Shown: positions 599 through 10,580 of the stretch, piece after piece
Position numbering within the stretch: the first letter of the stretch is position 1
Layout: every line of letters begins with the position of its first letter
Assembly: GCA_018260615.1 (NCBI GenBank)
Contig: JAGWDQ010000040.1
Coordinates: 1 to 10,802 of the forward strand
Origin: Candidatus Altarchaeum sp.
Lineage (GTDB): Archaea; Altiarchaeota; Altiarchaeia; Altiarchaeales; Altiarchaeaceae
DNA: 10,802 bases
Reading direction: 5' to 3'
The notes under the pieces: model-generated
Told to the model about the DNA's origin: nothing
Seen by the model: only the letters and a program-made list of their open reading frames with translations
The model's database searches: none
Position numbers and translations under genes: made by a program

Positions 599-1558
599 TT
601 ATACTTCTTTATTTTCACTTTCTATATCTGTTTGTGCTTCGTCATTTTCTTTTTCCACATCTGTTTGTGCTTCGTTATTTTCACTCTTTATATCTGTCTG
701 TTCGTCTCTATTTTCACTCTTCACATCTTTTTTCTCTTCTTCACTCTCTTTCACATCTTCTTTCTCTTCTTCACTCTCTTTCACATCTTTTTGCTCTTCT
801 TCACTCTTTTTTACCTCTTTATTTCTGGATATCAGCCGTGCCACAGTTATAAATCCTGTATGTGCTATCATCCTTGAACACGGCCTTACTACTTTCATAT
901 CCCAGTCCCGCAATACACATTCATAGGTCTCCTGAAGGAAATTTATATTTAACGCATCATGAAATTTTTTTGACTGCTCAATGCTCGGGCTGAACGAAAT
1001 CAGAATTCCCCCGATTTTTAACTTTTTCACTGCATGAGGAATAACTAACCACGGCTCCGGCAGGTCCAGAATTACCGCATCCAAATTTTCCTCGTCAATA
1101 CCTTCATATATATTTTTCATCTTTATTTCAACATTGTCAATTCCAAATCTCTCAAAATTTTTTCCCGCAATTTTCGCAAAGTCGTCCCTGATTTCATAAC
1201 TTATTACTTTTTCAGGATAAACGATATGGGCAAGAAAGATATCCAGAATTCCCGAGCCGGTTCCCGAATTTAAGACCTTGCTTCCAAAATGTAAATTTGC
1301 ATAGCCGACAATCAAAGATGCGTCCTTTAATGTGATTGCCTGCGGACCTCTTCTTGCCTTTTGCATTATGTCCGTAATATTCGGGTGAATAACCGCATAT
1401 TCAGTTCCCATATGTGTTTTCACAGTTCCTCCGACATCACAATTATTAATTTCATCTGCTTTAATCATTCCGTCTTTTGTATGCATATCTTCTCCCTTAA
1501 AGATGTATTTCCTTCCTTTAGGGTCTATTAAAATTTTCATATCAGTAAACATTTTCAT
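599..1558 (-). CDS. trmI: tRNA (adenine-N1)-methyltransferase, TrmI/GCD14 family, with a low-complexity C-terminal extension
   Basis: Family motifs RRGPQAITLKD, SAM-binding GTGSG, YEIRDDFA, catalytic LDLPEPW, FSPSIEQ and RP..RMIAHTGF. The start could be 1558, 1552 or 1540. Confidence 0.92.
   Translation of the reverse strand: MKMFTDMKILIDPKGRKYIFKGEDMHTKDGMIKADEINNCDVGGTVKTHMGTEYAVIHPNITDIMQKARRGPQAITLKDASLIVGYANLHFGSKVLNSGTGSGILDIFLAHIVYPEKVISYEIRDDFAKIAGKNFERFGIDNVEIKMKNIYEGIDEENLDAVILDLPEPWLVIPHAVKKLKIGGILISFSPSIEQSKKFHDALNINFLQETYECVLRDWDMKVVRPCSRMIAHTGFITVARLISRNKEVKKSEEEQKDVKESEEEKEDVKESEEEKKDVKSENRDEQTDIKSENNEAQTDVEKENDEAQTDIESENKEV
626..814 (-). repeat. Coding tandem repeats in the trmI tail: 3 x 33 bp and 3 x 30 bp
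   Basis: 33-bp units at 626-658, 659-691 and 692-724 (DIKSENNEAQT-like). 30-bp units at 725-754, 755-784 and 785-814 (DVKESEEEKE-like). Confidence 0.92.
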
Positions 1559-1578: not shown

Positions 1579-1887
1579 TTAGATATATGCGGCATTGTTT
1601 TCTGCGTTTTTCTTTAAATTTTTTAAATTTTCCTGTTCAATAATTATGTTCCTGTCAATTTTCTTTTCGTTAAAAAACATAAAGTCCCTTCTTAACAGCC
1701 GGACAAAAATTTTATCGGGAAGAACCTCCAATGCAATTACTCCTTCCCTTTCTAACTTTTTTATTTCTTTTTGCACTACATCCTTTCTCATTCCAATTTC
1801 TTTGACTAGTTCGTCTGTTGTTATGGGATACCTTTTCATTAAAATTTTTATTATTCGTTCCTGTAATTTGTTAGTCACATCTTTCAT
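1579..1887 (-). CDS. Winged helix-turn-helix DNA-binding protein / putative transcriptional regulator
   Basis: QERIIKIL..YPITTDELVKEIGMRKDVVQKEIKKLEREGVIALE..PDKIFVRL fits a three-helix plus beta-wing pattern. Starts 3 nt after the ligase stop. Confidence 0.75.
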   Translation of the reverse strand: MKDVTNKLQERIIKILMKRYPITTDELVKEIGMRKDVVQKEIKKLEREGVIALEVLPDKIFVRLLRRDFMFFNEKKIDRNIIIEQENLKNLKKNAENNAAYI

Positions 1888-1890
1888 TTT

Positions 1891-2940
1891 TCATTTTACC
1901 GAAGGCAGTTCAAATTTTGGCCTGATTATTTTCCATATACCTTCACTATAATCCTTATCATTAAGCATTGCAAATATTATACTTTTAAATTTTAAATTAT
2001 TTTTGGAAATATATTCCGCCTGTTCTTTTCTGCTGCCGAACTTATTTTTTATTTCTTCGGTTTTAGACAAACAATGTGTTTCTATTTCTTTAAATTTTGT
2101 CTTATACTCATCTTCCCTGTTTTTGACCCATCCGTAAAATTCATCCGGTAAATCCTTTAAAAGACCTTCTAAATTTTGCCTGTTTTTCAGACATTCGTAT
2201 ATGCTTAAAGTAGAAAAATTGGCAATTACTTTATGTAGCCGTAAGTAATCCTCACATTTGATTTTTAGCCGTAATCCATTGCTAAATTTAAATACAACGC
2301 CTTCGTCTTCATTTCCTTTTAAATTTTTAATATAGTCCAACGTCTCTTTTAAATTTTTATCTATTTTCTGAGGATATTCAAAGCCCAGCCGTTTTGCTTC
2401 TTTTATATAGTCAATTTCTTTTCCTGTTTTATTGTTAATTACCGCCAGCAAATAAAGTGTTTCTTTTCCCTGATAATCAACAATAATTTTACTTTCCGAA
2501 CAGACAATTTCAAATAAATAAGTGTAGTTCTTTTTAAAATCTTGCCTTTTAAATTTTCTCTTCCGAATATATCCGGTAGCCCAAACAGACTGTTCCGATT
2601 CAAAACTGCCCCGGGTAGCAATACATGGTTTTTCTTCGTCAAAATAAAGTATGCCTAAACAACCGTCTATTTTAACATTAATCAGAGGAATTTCCAGGGG
2701 TAGATTTTCTATTTTTGTCTCTTCTGTTTCGTTGAGATTAAAAAATTTTTTAAACGGTCTTGCTATAATATTTCCTTCCGTATCAGTTATAAGCCCTCTT
2801 GTCTGTATAGTATATTCATCCCACTTTCTTTCATACTGGCATTCTTTATTGTAATTCCATATAAATATATCAAGTGAGGGATGTTTCTTACATAAGATAT
2901 ATTTTTTTCTTTTTCTTAGTTCATCTAAATTAATGTTCAT
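1891..2940 (-). CDS. ATP-dependent RNA ligase, T4 Rnl1-like
   Basis: Nucleotidyltransferase motifs in order: I KIDG, Ia ATRGS, III YTYLFEI, IIIa LYLLAV, IV EGVVFK, V RLKIKCEDY. The N-terminal RGLI..EGNIIARPFKKFFN segment is typical of Rnl1-like ligases. Confidence 0.88.
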   Translation of the reverse strand: MNINLDELRKRKKYILCKKHPSLDIFIWNYNKECQYERKWDEYTIQTRGLITDTEGNIIARPFKKFFNLNETEETKIENLPLEIPLINVKIDGCLGILYFDEEKPCIATRGSFESEQSVWATGYIRKRKFKRQDFKKNYTYLFEIVCSESKIIVDYQGKETLYLLAVINNKTGKEIDYIKEAKRLGFEYPQKIDKNLKETLDYIKNLKGNEDEGVVFKFSNGLRLKIKCEDYLRLHKVIANFSTLSIYECLKNRQNLEGLLKDLPDEFYGWVKNREDEYKTKFKEIETHCLSKTEEIKNKFGSRKEQAEYISKNNLKFKSIIFAMLNDKDYSEGIWKIIRPKFELPSVK

Positions 2941-2996: not shown

Positions 2997-4079
2997 TTAA
3001 AATTTCATTTCCTTTAAAATTTCTCTTATTGCTAGTAAGTCAATTTTTGACTGTGGTTTTACCGTGTCGCTATAAAGATCCGAAAATAAGATGCCTGCTT
3101 TAATCAAAAAATTTAATGCCTTATAATCAACGCGAGAACAATCAGCCACATCGGAATTTTCAAATTCTTTGAACACTTCTATTACTTTTTTGAATAATTC
3201 CCCATCAGTTAATTTTAATTCGCTCAACCTTCTCCAAATGGAAGATTCGGTTATGTTTTTGTAACTATCAACTACTTCACTTAATTCTTTTCCCCACTTC
3301 TTCTTGTATATCGCCTGTATCAAATTCCCGATCTTCCCGCCGAAATTATCAATGGCATAATTTGCATCTTCATCGCTAAATTTATATTTTTTCAAAAATT
3401 TTCTTGCCGTTTCTTCATCAAAATCATCAACAACAATATAATTTGCCCTTCCATCTAACCTCGCTATCTCATGAACCTTTTTAATAAACAAAATATCCGA
3501 TGATAAGACAAAGATATAGCATAGATGCAATTCCTTTGTTAAGCGAATGAAGAACTGAAATAAGTTGTAAATCGTGAATTTATCCACATATTTATCCATC
3601 ATCTGAATCTCGTCAATTATCCACACGGGATGCTTTCCGGATGACTCCATGTCTCTCATAATATCTTTAATATGCGTAAACAAAAAGACCCTGTTTTCCT
3701 CTTTAAACCATTCATTTAGCGATTTTTCTGATGCAGGAATGCCGGAATATATCTTTGCCTTTGTGGTTTCATTTGTTTTTTGCACATCGGACTCTCCGAA
3801 TAACTTTTTGAACATACCGTCTGTTTTCCCAAACAAATCTCTCAAAAGACCAATTCCGTCAGAAAAGTCCCTAGCCCTTAAATTTGTATAAAAAACGACA
3901 TAATTGCTTGATAATTCTTCAATTAAATTTGTGATTAACGCCGTCTTTCCGGAATTCATCGGGCCATAAATGAAATTGAGCAGTTGCGGCTCTGTTTTTA
4001 AAATGTGTAAAATTTCTTCTTTTTCCCTTTCCCTGTTAAAAAATTCAATACTATATTCAAAATTTTTAGAGGCATTCAT
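2997..4079 (-). CDS. Archaeal ATPase (ATPase_2 / MJ-type STAND family), copy E, most divergent
   Basis: FFNRE N-terminus, Walker A GPMNSGKT, Walker B WIIDEIQ, and LTKELHLCYIFVLSSD. The start overlaps the copy D stop (ATGA). Confidence 0.88.
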   Translation of the reverse strand: MNASKNFEYSIEFFNREREKEEILHILKTEPQLLNFIYGPMNSGKTALITNLIEELSSNYVVFYTNLRARDFSDGIGLLRDLFGKTDGMFKKLFGESDVQKTNETTKAKIYSGIPASEKSLNEWFKEENRVFLFTHIKDIMRDMESSGKHPVWIIDEIQMMDKYVDKFTIYNLFQFFIRLTKELHLCYIFVLSSDILFIKKVHEIARLDGRANYIVVDDFDEETARKFLKKYKFSDEDANYAIDNFGGKIGNLIQAIYKKKWGKELSEVVDSYKNITESSIWRRLSELKLTDGELFKKVIEVFKEFENSDVADCSRVDYKALNFLIKAGILFSDLYSDTVKPQSKIDLLAIREILKEMKF

Positions 4080-5197
4080 TTTGTTTCAATTTCCTTTAAA
4101 ATTTCCCTTATCGCCAAAAGATCAAATTTTGACTGTGGTTTTATTATTTTTTCTCTCGTATCAACAAACAATATGTTTTTTGAAACTAAATAACACAGTT
4201 CGGGAGTTATCACGGAATATTTATAAAAGTCGTTCCCGGAAAAATTTTTCAATATCTCTGTTGTATTTTCATAATTAACATCAATGTCCTTTCCCTGGTA
4301 TTTTATCGTTACACCAATTGTCTTAATGTAGTATAACAGTTGTGCGATTTCTTCCTTTGAATCAGCAAGACCTTTTTCTACATAGTCATTTAGACCCCTT
4401 CCGATTTTCTTCTCATCTATCATCGTTGTAAGTAATGACGGTTTTCCACCAACATAGTCATTTGCCAGTTTTATCTCTTCTTCTGTAAATCCATACTTTT
4501 CCAAAAATTTTCCTGCTGTTTTTTCATCAAAATCATCAACTAACAAGTATCGGCATCTGTTTTTAAGCATTGCTTCACTATAAACCTTTTCAATAAATAA
4601 TGAATCAGAAGACAAAGCAAAAACATGGCAAAGATGTAATTCTTTCGTTAAGCGGATGAAGAAATTAAACAATTTGTAAATCAATTTTCCGTTAATTTCC
4701 AGATCCCCTATAACCTGCAATTCATCAATGATCAAAACCGGAATTTTTTCTTCACTTATTTTCAGAAAATACTCTTCCAAAAATTCAAAAACATCCTCGG
4801 AACTTTTGGTTTCAAGAAATCCGTCAAGCATATCTTTTTCTATCGGAATGCCTGACAGGTATCTTCCTGCCAGTACAAGTGCCTTTTTAGCGAGCTTTTC
4901 GCCTTTTTCTATTACCTTTTCAGATATTTCTTTTCTCTTAACTTTGAATAACACCCTTACAAATCCGCCATATTCTTTTATCAGTTTTCCCCGCAGATTT
5001 ATATAAAAAACAGCATATTTGTCTTTTGGCAAATCATCAATTAAACTCGTTATTAAAGTTGTCTTTCCGCTATTTATTGGCCCGTAAATAAAATTTATGA
5101 AATTTGGCTTTGCTCTTAAAATGCGCATAATTTCCTCTTTCTCCTTTTCCCTGTTAAAAAATTCAATGTCGTATTCAAATTTTTCGGTTGTATTCAT
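4076..5197 (-). CDS. Archaeal ATPase (ATPase_2 / MJ-type STAND family), copy D
   Basis: FFNREKE, Walker A GPINSGKT, Walker B LIIDELQ, and LTKELHLCHVFALSSDSLFIE, as in the Methanocaldococcus jannaschii paralog family. Confidence 0.92.
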   Translation of the reverse strand: MNTTEKFEYDIEFFNREKEKEEIMRILRAKPNFINFIYGPINSGKTTLITSLIDDLPKDKYAVFYINLRGKLIKEYGGFVRVLFKVKRKEISEKVIEKGEKLAKKALVLAGRYLSGIPIEKDMLDGFLETKSSEDVFEFLEEYFLKISEEKIPVLIIDELQVIGDLEINGKLIYKLFNFFIRLTKELHLCHVFALSSDSLFIEKVYSEAMLKNRCRYLLVDDFDEKTAGKFLEKYGFTEEEIKLANDYVGGKPSLLTTMIDEKKIGRGLNDYVEKGLADSKEEIAQLLYYIKTIGVTIKYQGKDIDVNYENTTEILKNFSGNDFYKYSVITPELCYLVSKNILFVDTREKIIKPQSKFDLLAIREILKEIETK

Positions 5198-5276
5198 TTT
5201 ATCTTTATTTCTTTCTGTTAAAATTATACTCCGATACCAATATGAGCAATTAAAGCAAAGACATCAAATAAATTTA
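5055..5276. repeat. Shared ATPase 5' module plus leader, present three times (also 6354-6575 and 7680-7901)
   Basis: Copies B, C and D share MNTTEKFEYDIEFFNREKEKEEIMRILRAKPNFINFIYGPINSGKTTLIT and the same leader sequence, with only scattered mismatches. Confidence 0.9.
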
Positions 5277-5389
5277 CTGTCTTGTCATTATTTAAATCAT
5301 AATATGCTTCAGAGCAAGTTAAATTTTCTAAATCTTTCTGTCCGCTTAAATATTGAGGCATTTTAACCATTCATAAGTTGTATTCATTT
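5187..5389. repeat. 13-bp direct repeats bracketing the C-D spacer (same arrangement at 7812-7824 / 8002-8014)
   Basis: GTTGTATTCATTT at 5187-5199 and 5377-5389, which reads AAATGAATACAAC on the minus strand. Confidence 0.85.
5224..5370 (-). CDS. Orphan dockerin-like mini-ORF, 48 aa (MVKMPQYLSGQKDLENLTCSEAYYDLNNDKTVNLFDVFALIAHIGIGV); may be a gene remnant
   Basis: Hand-translated, ATG 5370 to TAA 5224. Homologous to the C-terminal tail of the 9138-10580 protein (VEMLEYLSGQK...LLDVFALI). DLNNDKTVNLFD fits a dockerin/EF-hand-type Ca loop. Confidence 0.55.
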   Translation of the reverse strand: MVKMPQYLSGQKDLENLTCSEAYYDLNNDKTVNLFDVFALIAHIGIGV

Positions 5390-6496
5390 CATTTCCTTTA
5401 AAATTTCTCTTATTGCGAGCAAATCAAGTTTTGACTGCTGTTTAACATAGTCCTTAACACAATCAGCAAATAATATATTTTTACTTACCAAATATCTCTT
5501 TGCAGTTTCGTTTATTTCGTCACTGTTTCTCCTTTCAACATCTTTAAATTTTTTCATCGTTTCTAATAAGACCTCATGACTTACTGGAAATGTCGTATCC
5601 CTGACTTTTATTTCATCACCGAATTCTCTGACATCCCTTAAAATTGACTTTATTTCACTCTTTCTTTCCAAAATCATCTGTTCAATGTACTTATTTCTGT
5701 CATTAGAAAGAATATAGTCCGCTAATGTTCTCGGCTTCCCCCCCAGATAATCATAGGCAATTTTTTGTTCTTCTTTACTGATTTTATATTTTTCCAAAAA
5801 TCTTTTGATTGTTTGTTCGTCAAAATCATCAATTAGTAAATACTTACATCTTCCCTGCAGTATTGCTTCAGCATAGACCCTTTCAATGAATAATGAGTCA
5901 GAAGATAAAGCAAAGACATGACAAATATGTAGTTCTTTTGTTAATCCAATGAAGAAGTTAAACAATTTATAAATCAGTTTTCCGTCAATTTCCAGATCGC
6001 CAATCATCTGTAATTCATCAATTACCAAAACAGGCGTTTTGTGTTTTGCAATGTTTTTAAAATATTCTACAAGATAGTTAAACACATCTTCATTACTTTT
6101 TTCTTTGAAAAATGTTTCAAGCAAACTCTTATCCACAGGAATTCCATGGGATTTATATAATGTCTTTTCTCCTGTGGAAGTGATATGTTTTAAGACCTTT
6201 GTAAAAATATTTTTGATTTTTTTTAAGAATCCTCCTTCTTCAATTGCGAATAAAACCCTGATAAAATCCTCATATCTTATAATTGATTTTCTCCTTAAAT
6301 TCACATAAAAAACAACATAATTTTCAGGCAGATTTTCAATTAAATTTGTAATCAAAGTTGTCTTTCCGCTGTTTATTGGCCCGTAAATAAAATTTATGAA
6401 ATTTGGCTTTGCTCTTAAAATGCGCATAATTTCCTCTTTCTCCTTTTCCCTGTTAAAAAATTCAATGTCGTATTCAAATTTTTCGGTTGTATTCAT
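5384..6496 (-). CDS. Archaeal ATPase (ATPase_2 / MJ-type STAND family), copy C
   Basis: Walker A GPINSGKT and Walker B LVIDELQ. N-terminus shared with B and D, middle shared with A. Confidence 0.92.
   Translation of the reverse strand: MNTTEKFEYDIEFFNREKEKEEIMRILRAKPNFINFIYGPINSGKTTLITNLIENLPENYVVFYVNLRRKSIIRYEDFIRVLFAIEEGGFLKKIKNIFTKVLKHITSTGEKTLYKSHGIPVDKSLLETFFKEKSNEDVFNYLVEYFKNIAKHKTPVLVIDELQMIGDLEIDGKLIYKLFNFFIGLTKELHICHVFALSSDSLFIERVYAEAILQGRCKYLLIDDFDEQTIKRFLEKYKISKEEQKIAYDYLGGKPRTLADYILSNDRNKYIEQMILERKSEIKSILRDVREFGDEIKVRDTTFPVSHEVLLETMKKFKDVERRNSDEINETAKRYLVSKNILFADCVKDYVKQQSKLDLLAIREILKEMK
6018..6321. repeat. 304-bp identical direct repeat, copy 1 (copy 2 at 8655-8958)
   Basis: Offset 2637. 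Encodes the inter-Walker segment of copies C and A. Similarity with scattered mismatches continues down to about 5863/8500. Confidence 0.92.
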
Positions 6497-6522
6497 TTTA
6501 TCTTTATTTCTTTCTGTTAAAA

Positions 6523-6702
6523 TTATACTCTGATACCAATATTATCAATTAAAACAAAGACATCAAATAAATTTATATCGTCATCATTACTTTCAACAAA
6601 TTTATAATGTGGCTTATCATGACCTAATGTTGTCTTTTCTCAGCTTAAATATCCGGGCATTTTAACTGCATCAAAGATGCCGGTTGCTTTTTCACTTAAT
6701 AG
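6523..6702 (-). pseudogene. Remnant of a surface-protein dockerin-like C-terminal tail with an in-frame TGA
   Basis: Reads LLSEKATGIFDAVKMPGYLS*EKTTLGHDKPHYKFVESNDDDINLFDVFVLIDNIGIRV*, aligning to LLWTKAKDLFDAVEMLEYLSGQK...YYKFVGNENSEITLLDVFALIDKI. The TGA at 6642-6640 sits where the other copies have GGA. Confidence 0.8.
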
Positions 6703-7822
6703 TTAATGTGTTATCATCAATTTCTTTTAAAATTTCTCTTATACCTGTTAAAATTATCCCTGACTGTATCTTTATAGTTTCCTTTTGTGGATTTATAAAT
6801 AAAATGTTTTTCCCGGATAAATAAATCTTTTCTGCCCTGCTTATTCCCGCATCTCTTATTTCTTCCTTATCTTTAAACATTTTTAGTATTTCAATTACTT
6901 TATCTCTTTCAACGGGAATTTTTTCTTCACCTTCTTCCATCTCTATTTTTGGTTTTACATACAACAATTTATCAAGCATATCTGATATAAGGCGCCTTTT
7001 CTCAGCAATTTTCTCCTGAACAACTGAATTTATTTCTTTGCCTTCTTCAAGCAATATTCTCAAATCCCCGGGTTTCCCTCCGAAATATTTTATTGCCTTA
7101 TTTATGTCCTTAAATTTGTATTTCTTCAAAAATTTCCCTGCATTTTCTTCATCAAAATCATCAATCAAAATATAATTTGTCCTTCCTTCAAGCATCGCCT
7201 CATTATAAACCCTTTCAATGAACAAAGAGTCAGAAGACAAAGCAAAAACATGGCAAAGATGTAATTCTTTCGTTAAGCGGATGAAGAAATTAAACAATTT
7301 GTAAATCAATTTTCCGTTAATTTCCAGATCCCCTATAACCTGCAATTCATCAATGATCAAAACCGGAATTTTTTCTTCACTTATTTTCAGAAAATACTCT
7401 TCCAAAAATTCAAAAACATCCTCGGAACTTTTGGTTTCAAGAAATCCGTCAAGCATATCTTTTTCTATCGGAATGCCTGACAGGTATCTTCCTGCCAGTA
7501 CAAGTGCCTTTTTAGCGAGCTTTTCGCCTTTTTCTATTACCTTTTCAGATATTTCTTTTCTCTTAACTTTGAATAACACCCTTACAAATCCGCCATATTC
7601 TTTTATCAGTTTTCCCCGCAGATTTATATAAAAAACAGCATATTTGTCTTTTGGCAAATCATCAATTAAACTCGTTATTAAAGTTGTCTTTCCGCTATTT
7701 ATTGGCCCGTAAATAAAATTTATGAAATTTGGCTTTGCTCTTAAAATGCGCATAATTTCCTCTTTCTCCTTTTCCCTGTTAAAAAATTCAATGTCGTATT
7801 CAAATTTTTCGGTTGTATTCAT
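6692..7822 (-). CDS. Archaeal ATPase (ATPase_2 / MJ-type STAND family), copy B
   Basis: Identical to copy D from Met1 to SSDSLFIE, then a different C-terminal half. Confidence 0.92.
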   Translation of the reverse strand: MNTTEKFEYDIEFFNREKEKEEIMRILRAKPNFINFIYGPINSGKTTLITSLIDDLPKDKYAVFYINLRGKLIKEYGGFVRVLFKVKRKEISEKVIEKGEKLAKKALVLAGRYLSGIPIEKDMLDGFLETKSSEDVFEFLEEYFLKISEEKIPVLIIDELQVIGDLEINGKLIYKLFNFFIRLTKELHLCHVFALSSDSLFIERVYNEAMLEGRTNYILIDDFDEENAGKFLKKYKFKDINKAIKYFGGKPGDLRILLEEGKEINSVVQEKIAEKRRLISDMLDKLLYVKPKIEMEEGEEKIPVERDKVIEILKMFKDKEEIRDAGISRAEKIYLSGKNILFINPQKETIKIQSGIILTGIREILKEIDDNTLTIK

Positions 7823-8062
7823 TTTATCTTTATTTCTTTCTGTTAAAATTATTGTTCGGTAACAATATGAGCAATTAAAGCAAAGACATCAAGTAAATTT
7901 ACTGTCTTGTCATTATTTAAATCATAATATGCTTCAGAGCAAGTTAAATTTTCTAAATCTTTCTGTCCGCTTAAATATTGAGGCATTTTAACCATTCATA
8001 AGTTGTATTCATTTCATTTCCTTTAAAATTTCTCTTATTGCGAGCAAATCAAGTTTTGACTG
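7230..8062. repeat. 833-bp direct repeat, copy 2 (copy 1 at 4605-5437)
   Basis: See copy 1. Covers the 3' end of ATPase A, the spacer, and the 5' half of ATPase B. Confidence 0.92.
7849..7995 (-). CDS. Orphan dockerin-like mini-ORF, 48 aa (MVKMPQYLSGQKDLENLTCSEAYYDLNNDKTVNLLDVFALIAHIVTEQ); may be a gene remnant
   Basis: Hand-translated, ATG 7995 to TAA 7849. LLDVFALIAHIVT matches LLDVFALIDKIVT at the end of the surface protein. Confidence 0.55.
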   Translation of the reverse strand: MVKMPQYLSGQKDLENLTCSEAYYDLNNDKTVNLLDVFALIAHIVTEQ

Positions 8063-9124
8063 TGGTTTTATTGTCTCATTAGCACATTCGGCAAATAAAA
8101 TATTATCCTTGACAAGATACATTTTTATTACTTCACTAATATCATTGGCAGATATTTCATCTTTTTCACCAAACATTTTAAGTGTTGAAATTACCTTGGT
8201 ATAATCAACATTGTAAGAAACATTGTTATATTTTATTTCACTTCCGAATTCTTTGAGTTTTCTTAAAGTATCATTTGTTTCCTTCTTTCTGCTTTCCAGC
8301 ATTTCTTTCACTTCATTCATTATCTCTTTTCCCCTCTTTTTTGCATCTATGATTCTGATTAAATGTGCGGGCTTCCCCCCGATGTTTTTGTAAATAAGTT
8401 TCTGTTCCTCCTTGTTAATATTATATTTTCCTAAAAATTTCAAGGTTGTTTCTTCATCAAAATTATTTATTAGTAAATATCTGCACCTGTCTTTAAGTAT
8501 TGCTTCATTATAGACCCTTTCAATAAATAAAGAGTCAGAAGATAAAGCAAAGACATGACAGATATGCAGTTCTTTTGTTAAACCAATGAAAAAATTAAAC
8601 AATTTATAAATCAGTTTTCCATTAATCTCAAGACCGCCAATCATCTGTAATTCGTCAATTACCAAAACAGGCGTTTTGTGTTTTGCAATGTTTTTAAAAT
8701 ATTCTACAAGATAGTTAAACACATCTTCATTACTTTTTTCTTTGAAAAATGTTTCAAGCAAACTCTTATCCACAGGAATTCCATGGGATTTATATAATGT
8801 CTTTTCTCCTGTGGAAGTGATATGTTTTAAGACCTTTGTAAAAATATTTTTGATTTTTTTTAAGAATCCTCCTTCTTCAATTGCGAATAAAACCCTGATA
8901 AAATCCTCATATCTTATAATTGATTTTCTCCTTAAATTCACATAAAAAACAACATAATCATCAGGTAAATTTTCAATCATGTCTGTTATTAAAGTTGTCT
9001 TCCCGGAGTTTATTGGACCATAGATAAAATTGAGCAGTTGCGGCTCTGTCCTTAAAATGTTCAAAATTTCCCGTTTTTCATTTTCCCTGTCAAAAAATTC
9101 AATTTTTCGGATGTTTGGTTTCAT
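8009..9124 (-). CDS. Archaeal ATPase (ATPase_2 / MJ-type STAND family), copy A
   Basis: FFDRE, Walker A GPINSGKT and Walker B LVIDELQ. ATG 9124 is preferred over TTG 9163, which overlaps the upstream gene and adds residues absent from the paralogs. Confidence 0.9.
   Translation of the reverse strand: MKPNIRKIEFFDRENEKREILNILRTEPQLLNFIYGPINSGKTTLITDMIENLPDDYVVFYVNLRRKSIIRYEDFIRVLFAIEEGGFLKKIKNIFTKVLKHITSTGEKTLYKSHGIPVDKSLLETFFKEKSNEDVFNYLVEYFKNIAKHKTPVLVIDELQMIGGLEINGKLIYKLFNFFIGLTKELHICHVFALSSDSLFIERVYNEAILKDRCRYLLINNFDEETTLKFLGKYNINKEEQKLIYKNIGGKPAHLIRIIDAKKRGKEIMNEVKEMLESRKKETNDTLRKLKEFGSEIKYNNVSYNVDYTKVISTLKMFGEKDEISANDISEVIKMYLVKDNILFAECANETIKPQSKLDLLAIREILKEMK
8655..8958. repeat. 304-bp identical direct repeat, copy 2 (copy 1 at 6018-6321)
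   Basis: See copy 1. Confidence 0.92.
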
Positions 9125-9137
9125 AGTTTGTTTAAAT

Positions 9138-10580
9138 TTATCCTCCTGTAACAATTTTATCAATCAAAGCGAAGACATCTAATAAAGTTATCTCTGAATT
9201 TTCATTTCCAACAAATTTATAGTATCCTGGAATATTGCTATAACTTAATTGGTTGAAATTTTTCTGTCCACTTAAATATTCAAGCATTTCAACAGCATCA
9301 AAAAGGTCTTTTGCTTTAGTCCACAATAAATGTGAGTAAGAAACTCCTTCTTCAATACCCCAAACATTGTTGAAGTCCCATGCAGAATAAATGCCAATGC
9401 TCTTGTAGTAGAAATCACTCTTATTCGCTTGATTATAGGTAACGTTTGCTGAGATATTGCCTATTGCATTCGCTGGGCCGGAGCCAGTCCACCATCCACT
9501 ATTATTAACTACTGGAGAATCCCATCCAAAAAGTCCCACAAGTCCCCCAACATTAGTGGTCCCATTTACACTACCAGTTGAATAAGAATTATAGATGCCT
9601 GAAGTACCATAGAATCCACCACCAAGGCGCCCTAGATCGCCTACAAGACCGCCGACATTATTATTGCCCGAAACATTTCCTGTAGCATAAGAGTTATAAA
9701 TGTTCGCTCCGTTAATTTCTCCAATTAAACCACCAACGCTATTGTTACCTAAAACATTTCCGGTAGCATAACAATCTCTTACTGTAGCTGTATTTATGTG
9801 GCCTATCAGACCGCCCGTAGCGGTTCCCTGAGATATAACATTTCCAGTGGCAAAACATCGCTCTATTATATCTTGCCCTAAATGCCCGGCAACACCAACC
9901 AAACCACCTATATAATATGTTTCATTTGAACTGCTGGAAACAGTGGCAGCAGAGTAGGAATCATAAATTGATGTTGATTCAATTCTCCCTATCAACCCTC
10001 CACCACTATGTGAATCCGCTGAGAGTGTACCTGTGGATGAACAGTTAGTGATCACCGATGTCTCAGCCCAACCTCCCAGCGCACCAACCATGGAGTTTCC
10101 TGTTATGTTAACTTCTCTTAAGTGAACATTCCTAATAATTGCATTTTTCATACTACTTAATAACCCTACATTCGTCGAGGATGATATGTTTATGTACAGA
10201 CCTGTTATGCTTTTCTCATTTCCGTCAAGCGAACCAGTAAATGGAATATATGGGGATTCCCATACGCTACCATGACCCACAGGAATAAATCCTGCTCCGG
10301 CGTTCCAATTCTTGGTATCTGTGCAGTTTATAGAGTTATTTAGAGCATAACTTAAAGTCAAATTTTCATTCATTGCCTGTAATTGAGTGCAATTAGTAAT
10401 TATGCATGGATTTCCCGATGTTCCGTCTCCTGCCATTCCTGACGGACATGATGCATTCACATTCGTACTTAAAACCACAATAATTCCTAAAAAAACCAAA
10501 GCCAAAATCCCTAAATTTTTTAAATTTCCAAAAATTTCATTCCCCTTTGGCATTTCGCCAGCAAAATTTTTTGCATCCAT
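9138..10580 (-). CDS. Secreted GLUG-repeat surface (glyco)protein with a C-terminal dockerin-like tail
   Basis: Hydrophobic signal region ending NVNA|S. GLUG-family N-terminal signature GDGTSGNPCII..CTQLQAM...WNAGAGFIPVG...FTGSLDG. Repeated (V/I)GGL(V/I)G and (C/S)(Y/F)ATGNV motifs, and at least 14 N-x-S/T sequons. Confidence 0.85.
   Translation of the reverse strand: MDAKNFAGEMPKGNEIFGNLKNLGILALVFLGIIVVLSTNVNASCPSGMAGDGTSGNPCIITNCTQLQAMNENLTLSYALNNSINCTDTKNWNAGAGFIPVGHGSVWESPYIPFTGSLDGNEKSITGLYINISSSTNVGLLSSMKNAIIRNVHLREVNITGNSMVGALGGWAETSVITNCSSTGTLSADSHSGGGLIGRIESTSIYDSYSAATVSSSSNETYYIGGLVGVAGHLGQDIIERCFATGNVISQGTATGGLIGHINTATVRDCYATGNVLGNNSVGGLIGEINGANIYNSYATGNVSGNNNVGGLVGDLGRLGGGFYGTSGIYNSYSTGSVNGTTNVGGLVGLFGWDSPVVNNSGWWTGSGPANAIGNISANVTYNQANKSDFYYKSIGIYSAWDFNNVWGIEEGVSYSHLLWTKAKDLFDAVEMLEYLSGQKNFNQLSYSNIPGYYKFVGNENSEITLLDVFALIDKIVTGG

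Follow-up and report, generated by a model that had tools for sequence, protein, structure and literature searches.

The window analysed here is one entire contig (JAGWDQ010000040.1; 10.8 kb, 10,802 nucleotides, nt) of a draft Candidatus Altarchaeum genome (148 contigs, 2.23 Mb, 87% complete). Its minus strand holds five co-oriented paralogous open reading frames (ORFs) of 371, 376, 370, 373, and 360 amino acids (aa), denoted A to E in transcription order, which encode "archaeal ATPases" of the MJ1010 type. The genes are mosaics, built from blocks that are identical in DNA between some copies and from others that have diverged strongly. The start of E overlaps the stop codon of D (ATGA).

8009-9124, minus strand: gene A, 371 aa; PF01637 and PF21690 domains; an N-terminal module of its own and an insert of type i1.
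6692-7822, minus strand: gene B, 376 aa; 5′ 593 coding nt identical to D, 3′ 356 nt identical to a paralog on contig C130.
5384-6496, minus strand: gene C, 370 aa; N-terminal module of B and D joined to insert i1.
4076-5197, minus strand: gene D, 373 aa; 5′ part identical to B, 3′ 467 nt identical to a paralog on contig C117.
2997-4079, minus strand: gene E, 360 aa; the most diverged copy, with Walker A and Walker B motifs intact.

All five genes match PF01637 (ATPase_2; 134-179 bits against a cut-off of 33.2, E values of 1e-39 to 1e-52) and PF21690 (the MJ1010-like second domain; 36-71 bits, cut-off 27); no NCBIfam model matches the ATPases. The AlphaFold2 model of B, computed with 78 homologues (predicted local distance difference test score 83, predicted TM-score 0.82), comprises three predicted domains.

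B residues ~13-220: P-loop domain, in which loop 89-112 of the inter-Walker insert is poorly ordered in the model.
B residues 225-288: helical lid.
B residues 290-370: winged helix.

The best structural matches of this model are PABY2304 (PDB entry 2qen; Z 19.9) and SSO1545 (2fna; Z 18.7), over ~295 residues, followed at Z 13-16 by Orc/Cdc6, MalT, plant nucleotide-binding leucine-rich repeat receptors (NLRs, as resistosomes), TnsC, and Avs3. The C-terminal domain superposes on 3bjo with a root-mean-square deviation of 1.3. Shared motifs are EFF[ND]RExE before Walker A, GP[IM]NSGKT, and hhIDE[LI]Q. Among the 78 homologues, Phe13, Gly44, Lys45, Asp158, and Glu159 are invariant and Arg16, Glu17, and Glu19 are at least 90% conserved; in the GGKP motif of the lid, Gly249 and Lys250 are invariant and Gly248 and Pro251 at least 90% conserved. 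In our own reading of the sequences, FF[ND]RExE and the Walker motifs would be equivalent to the published hhGRExE-type motif of signal transduction ATPases with numerous domains (STAND). The MNS clade of STAND nucleoside triphosphatases (NTPases) is named in PMC8195603 and PMC13581612 (after Leipe et al. 2004), and placing the array proteins in it is justified by predicted fold and motifs. An earlier interpretation made from the DNA letters alone, hereafter the sequence-only reading, had likewise called them STAND-class ATPases of a family expanded in Methanocaldococcus, where there are indeed many copies per genome (at least 16 in M. jannaschii). Methanocaldococcus as the host was not borne out, the nearest relatives in named genomes being metagenome-assembled genomes (MAGs) of Candidatus Altiarchaeum/Altarchaeum. 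As to the structure of the C-terminal halves, to which that reading also pointed, modeling of B revealed a winged helix, but no sensor or effector domain.

Comparison of the five genes delimits the shared blocks precisely. B 7852-7230 equals D 5227-4605 over 623 nt, 30 nt of which lie upstream of the ATG, and the identity stops at codon 198 (SSDSLFIE). Two exact tracts connect A and C: one of 304 nt (A 8958-8655, C 6321-6018), which is the insert between the Walker motifs, and one of 54 nt (A 8062-8009, C 5437-5384), which runs from the QSK codons on. At the 5′ end, B equals C over 155 nt and C equals D over 159 nt, up to TTLIT (codon 47). The largest repeated unit crosses a gene boundary and includes an intergenic stub of an upstream gene, described below.

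7230-8062, minus strand: 833-nt block (3′ end of A, intergenic stub, 5′ part of B), equal to 4605-5437 at an offset of 2625 nt.
4605-5437, minus strand: counterpart of this 833-nt block, from the 3′ end of C through the stub into the 5′ part of D, with six mismatches to 7230-8062 in this assembly.
8655-8958, minus strand: block i1, gene A copy (304 nt), identical in C and in the dispersed paralogs C20, C81a, and C81b.
6018-6321, minus strand: block i1, gene C copy, identical to the gene A copy.

Beyond the tracts, identity drops to 30-65% (60-nt windows). The proportion of synonymous differences (pS) is 0 within the tracts and 0.6-0.8, that is, saturated, beyond them. Residues 158-206 behave differently from the tracts, with a proportion of nonsynonymous differences (pN) of 0.04 at a pS of 0.56-0.76: this conserved core is kept constant by purifying selection on the protein and not by DNA copying. 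The sequence-only reading had described an N-terminal module common to B, C, and D, inserts identical in DNA between B and D and between A and C, sharp switches at TTLIT, SSDSLFIE, and QSK, and a different combination of shared and divergent blocks in each gene, and had predicted purifying selection in the core. All of these are reproduced here: ~155 nt are exact at the 5′ end, the inserts fall within the 623-nt and 304-nt tracts, tract ends sit at the three switch points, comparison of tracts and modules gives each gene a combination of its own, and the core has the pN and pS values above. Its second N-terminal type, shared by A and E, holds as a likeness (82-85% nt identity) but not as an identity tract; comparison within the array and across the paralogs found no tract between E and any other copy. 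Because copies with 95-99% identity can be collapsed by metagenome assemblers, "exactly identical" is an upper bound throughout. The 100% DNA identity stated in that reading accordingly stands as exact tracts in the assembly, but is perhaps slightly overstated.

The array belongs to a set of ~15 close paralogs on nine contigs of the genome. The DNA around the other copies bears no relation to this contig, so that these copies represent separate loci rather than strain variants. Blocks are shared among them as they are within the array. Besides the 3′ tracts that join D to C117 and B to C130, C44b and C81a have 504 nt in common, and the 304-nt insert i1 is identical in five genes (A, C, C20, C81a, and C81b) on three contigs. 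The C-terminal half of A has its closest paralogs in C136 and C44a, and that of C resembles paralog C104 at 77-97%. Typing of the modules at 90% identity shows inserts i1 and i2 in all four possible pairings with winged helices W1 and W3 (C20, D, C81a, and C44b), which requires recombination. Of 91 paralog pairs examined in a GENECONV-type permutation test, 32 reached the floor of P ≤ 0.0005, the longest runs comprising 210-373 concordant polymorphic sites. The four combinations and the floor-level P values substantiate the recombination that the sequence-only reading had proposed. The tracts tend to end at the start of the gene or within residues 42-59 (Walker A), 158-166 (Walker B), 189-200 (sensor-1 region), and 353-371 (last helix), zones that take in most windows of top family-wide nt identity (0.71-0.90). 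One paralog, C44a (C44 41477-42579), is truncated by a frameshift at 279 aa and retains a C-terminal remnant in another frame. It is the sole clearly broken copy among the 15; the others are complete, with intact motifs.

Several other genomes bear on the arrangement. One contig from a metagenome of the Joint Genome Institute (L100), 28.4 kb in length, runs collinear with the entire window and extends past both ends, with 34 mismatches and no gaps. In the HGW-Altiarchaeales-2 scaffold (L101), the genes follow one another as in the window, from a gene for a GLUG-motif surface protein through A and B to C. Its flanking housekeeping (tRNA-synthetase) DNA is ~99% identical to L100 and its ATPase segments are 98.8-99.9% identical to the window. 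L101 is missing exactly the shared blocks, through a 308-nt out-of-frame deletion of the A inter-Walker insert (L101 4858/4859) and a 99-N gap at the B 5′ block (L101 5643-5741). Read depth agrees with the assembled copy numbers: in run X1, 31-mer multiplicity in the assembly correlates with summed contig depth, a crude measure, at Pearson r = 0.80, and depth is ~5.7x single-copy at the five-copy insert i1 and ~2.2-2.5x single-copy in the shared blocks of D (3972-5054). Similar tracts occur in cultured archaea. A codon-alignment scan of M. jannaschii (contigs of 1,664,970 and 58,407 bp) found exact tracts of up to 136 nt, and a 79-nt exact tract joins a chromosomal paralog (L089) to a copy on an extrachromosomal element (L092), which extends exchange to different replicons. 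In the closed Methanocaldococcus genome G036, copies separated by more than 1 Mb share tracts of 527, 275, and 254 nt. The tandem pair of Ca. A. hamiconexum (CCXY01000062) is 97-100% identical in the C-terminal region, with a 200-nt exact run, and 52-65% identical in the adjoining insert. No long near-identical tracts were found among the assembled copies of CG2_30, GA_1_1, A3, and WOR_SM1_SCG, but several contigs of these MAGs end inside family genes, so that the absence carries no weight. Tracts beyond chance, mutually incompatible combinations, and recurrence in independent and finished genomes, the signs by which ectopic gene conversion is recognized, are thus all present.

The window and L100 also differ in an informative manner. 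All 34 differences fall within 4074-8897 and none in 4.7 kb of flanks; were differences placed at random, the chance of such confinement would be ~0.57^34. Seven of the 34 are substitutions that B and D share at matching positions (offset 2625), and six of these seven affect third codon positions. The copies of the 833-nt block have no mismatches in L100 and six in the window; conversely, between A and C there are differences in L100 (five sites) but none in the window. A search for the donor of the L100 variants found no single paralog of this genome that carries all of the alternative bases. The pattern fits gene conversion after the two populations separated, with consensus choice by the assembler as the alternative. 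The two other assemblies, which represent closely related (~99% identical) populations, show the module combinations unchanged.

Degenerate stubs of the surface-protein gene lie before B, C, and D and, with a leader common to the three, make up their upstream region; before A lies the 3′ end of that gene itself.

9125-9330, minus strand: 3′ end (~190 nt) of the GLUG gene; precedes A.
7823-8008, minus strand: stub upstream of B; holds a 48-aa ORF (7849-7995).
6497-6691, minus strand: stub upstream of C; carries a stop.
5198-5383, minus strand: stub upstream of D; holds a 48-aa ORF (5224-5370).

Like stubs flank dispersed paralogs on C104, C136, C81, and C44, and the stubs may supply flanking homology for moving or duplicating ATPase genes.

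The analysis establishes the mosaic with its statistics, its recurrence in independent as well as closed genomes, the fold, and the purifying selection. Most probably, the array is part of a family of ~15 MNS-clade ATP-switch proteins that evolves by repeated homologous exchange between tandem and dispersed copies. The route would be ectopic gene conversion together with unequal crossing-over, carried out by a putative recombination machinery of the host, with exchanged tracts 0.1-0.8 kb long. Tracts would begin and end where all copies are still alike in DNA, namely at the gene start (stub plus leader), Walker A, Walker B, SSDSLFIE, and the QSK...REILKE segment, such that the stretches coding for conserved motifs and the stub/leader upstream of B, C, and D may serve as the places where exchange starts and ends. 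By this route the catalytic core would stay constant and the N-terminal segment, the inter-Walker insert, and the lid plus winged helix would be reassorted. The proteins themselves are presumably nucleotide-driven switches, whose winged helix and inter-Walker insert may bind nucleic acid or another ligand.

Some observations do weigh against repeated exchange as set out here. Linkage across the 300-830-nt identical blocks comes entirely from short-read assemblies, the contigs of runs X1 and X2 stop at repeats and so do not bridge these blocks, the three assemblies of the locus are probably from one study site, and merging of near-identical copies could partly explain the exact identity and, by consensus choice, the "concerted" changes in B and D. 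Pairwise ratios of nonsynonymous to synonymous substitution rates (dN/dS) are moreover a blunt instrument that positive selection at a few sites would escape. It is nevertheless highly improbable that the mosaic as a whole is an artefact of short-read assembly, in which pieces of paralogs or strains were joined or one repeat node was reused. Such an origin would suit a 148-contig draft with identical blocks longer than short reads, the coincidence of the 308-nt deletion and the 99-N gap of L101 with shared blocks, the contigs of other Altiarchaeales MAGs that end inside family genes, and the confinement to repeats of all 34 differences from L100. However, an assembler cannot make identity from sequences that are 40-60% identical, and shared blocks with different flanks must therefore exist in the DNA. 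Block depth fits two to five copies. Copy-specific variants are kept in both assemblies (six sites upstream of B and D here, five A/C sites in L100), so that copies were not always merged. Two assemblies and one scaffold give the same gene order, and closed isolate genomes hold the same kind of tracts. Less easily dismissed, though still doubtful, is the view that the window owes its pattern mostly to a single recent tandem duplication of a two-gene unit of ~2.63 kb (A-stub-B giving C-stub-D), followed by replacement of parts from dispersed copies, without sustained exchange and as neutral concerted evolution of no functional meaning. A duplication would leave a constant offset such as that of 2625 nt over the 833-nt block, which spans a gene boundary and a stub; the copy of an upstream gene's 3′ end before each of A to D and the purifying selection throughout are also in keeping with it. 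One event, however, can account neither for an i1 that is exactly the same in five genes spread over three contigs, nor for the exact match of B and D, in their 3′ halves, to different dispersed loci, nor for the presence of all four module combinations. The supposedly replaced parts are saturated at synonymous sites, and several independent exchanges would still be needed. A duplication of this kind differs from repeated exchange mainly in the number of events and in adaptive value.

The exchange may be of use to the cell or may simply follow from the presence of many similar copies. The sequence-only reading had seen in the array a set of diversifying pathogen sensors, an archaeal counterpart of NLR/Avs clusters in which new combinations recognize new viruses; this now seems unlikely. 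The NTPase module is of STAND type and can be superposed at Z 12-15 on plant NLRs, CED-4, Apaf-1, and Avs3. The family has expanded in a lineage-specific way and turns over rapidly: there are 15 copies here and at least 16 in M. jannaschii, and aa identity to the copies of sister species does not exceed 64%. All differences between two near-identical populations fall in the array. Ca. Altiarchaeum is heavily targeted by lytic viruses (PMC8324899), and a few toxin-antitoxin-like genes (PIN, HicB-like; named from sequence alone) lie near some dispersed copies. Against this, Pfam searches and the B model reveal no sensor repeat (TPR, LRR, WD40, or other) and no effector domain (nuclease, protease, TIR, SIR2) within the 360-376 aa, Pfam shows no domain beyond the two named above, and the proteins end right after the winged helix. 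In STAND proteins linked to defence, the sensor alone usually measures 400 aa or more, and many STAND clades have no such link (PMC13581612). PADLOC returned weak matches at the level of the P-loop alone (mad8, PDC-S01; E values of 1e-5 to 1e-2). The neighbors of the array encode an RNA ligase, a tRNA methyltransferase, and a surface protein, and those of the dispersed copies and of a homologue from anaerobic methanotrophic archaea (ANME) are mostly housekeeping genes. Pairwise dN/dS in the variable C-terminal module is 0.07-0.30 (five moderately diverged pairs), the opposite of the diversifying C-terminus that had been predicted, and module combinations are the same in three assemblies. It is tempting, if improbable, to speculate that the ~15 minimal STAND proteins of Altiarchaeum and Methanocaldococcus, their putative ligand- or DNA-contacting parts (insert and lid/winged helix) being reassorted at high frequency by gene conversion between motifs, provide combinatorial recognition without a repeat sensor, as a cassette-like archaeal analogue of NLR-cluster diversification, possibly directed against viruses or plasmids.

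The closest known relatives are the MJ1010/MJECL15 family of M. jannaschii, for which C-terminal structures exist (3bjo, 3h92). These proteins have the same two Pfam domains and the same length, are 38-49% identical in aa sequence to the array proteins, and likewise occur in many copies per genome with short exact tracts between paralogs. The present system differs in its host, which belongs to another phylum-level lineage (Altiarchaeales), in its longer tracts (as much as 623-833 nt, where M. jannaschii has 136 nt and G036 reaches 527 nt), and in the five tandem copies punctuated by stubs of a surface-protein gene. PABY2304, of PH type, and SSO1545, of SSO type, have the same build of nucleotide-binding domain, helical domain, and winged helix. 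The array proteins carry RExE and GxP motifs and are only 16-20% identical in sequence to these two, which represent other subfamilies of the MNS clade. Receptors of the NLR, Avs, and Apaf-1 type share the nucleotide-binding fold (Z 12-15), and plant NLR clusters are likewise clustered multigene families with recombination-mosaic paralogs. In contrast to NLR/Avs systems, the array has no sensor repeats, effector domain, defence neighborhood, or PADLOC model; its variable parts, unlike those of NLRs, are under purifying selection, and the exchanged units are pieces of the NTPase module rather than sensor repeats.

Orc1/Cdc6 proteins also combine an AAA+-like nucleotide-binding domain (AAA+, ATPases associated with diverse cellular activities) with a lid and a C-terminal winged helix, at similar total length (Z 14-16). 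These initiators contact DNA through an initiator-specific motif between strand 2 and Walker B, and through the winged helix. By analogy, the variable insert of the array proteins (from strand 2 to the Walker B strand) and their winged helix would sit at the DNA-contact positions of Orc/Cdc6. No Orc/Cdc6 sequence family is among the Pfam or NCBIfam matches of the array proteins, which further differ from Orc1/Cdc6 by ~15 copies per genome and by STAND-type RExE and GxP motifs. Mosaics produced by gene conversion are familiar from the cassette systems pilE/pilS and vlsE. Gene conversion is also known for mtrA duplicates in Methanococcales (PMC4632066). These systems resemble the array in that non-reciprocal copying of segments between paralogs leaves identity tracts in diverged genes. 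Unlike pilE/pilS and vlsE, the array has no expression site with silent cassettes and its tracts are bounded by enzyme motifs; the family has no known surface-antigen link.

The MJ1010-type "archaeal ATPase" has been among the largest unexplained archaeal paralog families from the first archaeal genome onward. Blocks bounded by motifs pass between its members both in uncultivated Altiarchaeum and in cultured Methanocaldococcus. The family and its expansion are long known, but the exchange of motif-bounded blocks within it is apparently new: a literature search found no paper on gene conversion or motif-bounded block exchange in the MJ1010-type ATPase family. The tracts mark the inter-Walker insert and the lid plus winged helix as units of variation, and so provide natural domain-swap sets for biochemistry. 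They also make whole-gene trees of the family unreliable and explain why metagenome assemblies break at these genes. Should the reassortment prove adaptive, it would represent a way to diversify a STAND protein without a repeat sensor.

Four further genes flank the array on the minus strand.

9138-10580, minus strand: GLUG-motif surface protein, first in transcription order, before A.
1891-2940, minus strand: T4 Rnl1-like RNA ligase (PF09511), starting 56 nt downstream of E.
1579-1887, minus strand: 102-aa winged-helix protein, after the RNA ligase gene.
599-1558, minus strand: GCD14/TrmI-type methyltransferase, last in transcription order.

The RNA ligase and small winged-helix genes are also present in L100. 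L101 3142-4858, aligned with window 10695-8973, is merely 92.5% identical over the GLUG gene and the start of A; the surface-protein gene is a local divergence hot spot between HGW-Altiarchaeales-2 and this strain. The 3′ part of the methyltransferase gene (599-830) encodes an acidic tail made of 30-66-nt tandem repeats (SEEE.KDVKE units).

Both contig ends (68-258 and 10745-10802) carry a hairpin-rich dispersed repeat, found on more than 20 other contigs at 75-93% identity and present at a depth of 30-40x single-copy in runs X1 and X2. A clustered regularly interspaced short palindromic repeat (CRISPR) array was ruled out at these positions, the high-copy sequence being dispersed and hairpin-rich rather than a spaced array. 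The repeat looks like a miniature inverted-repeat transposable element (MITE), and is probably the reason why the contig stops there.

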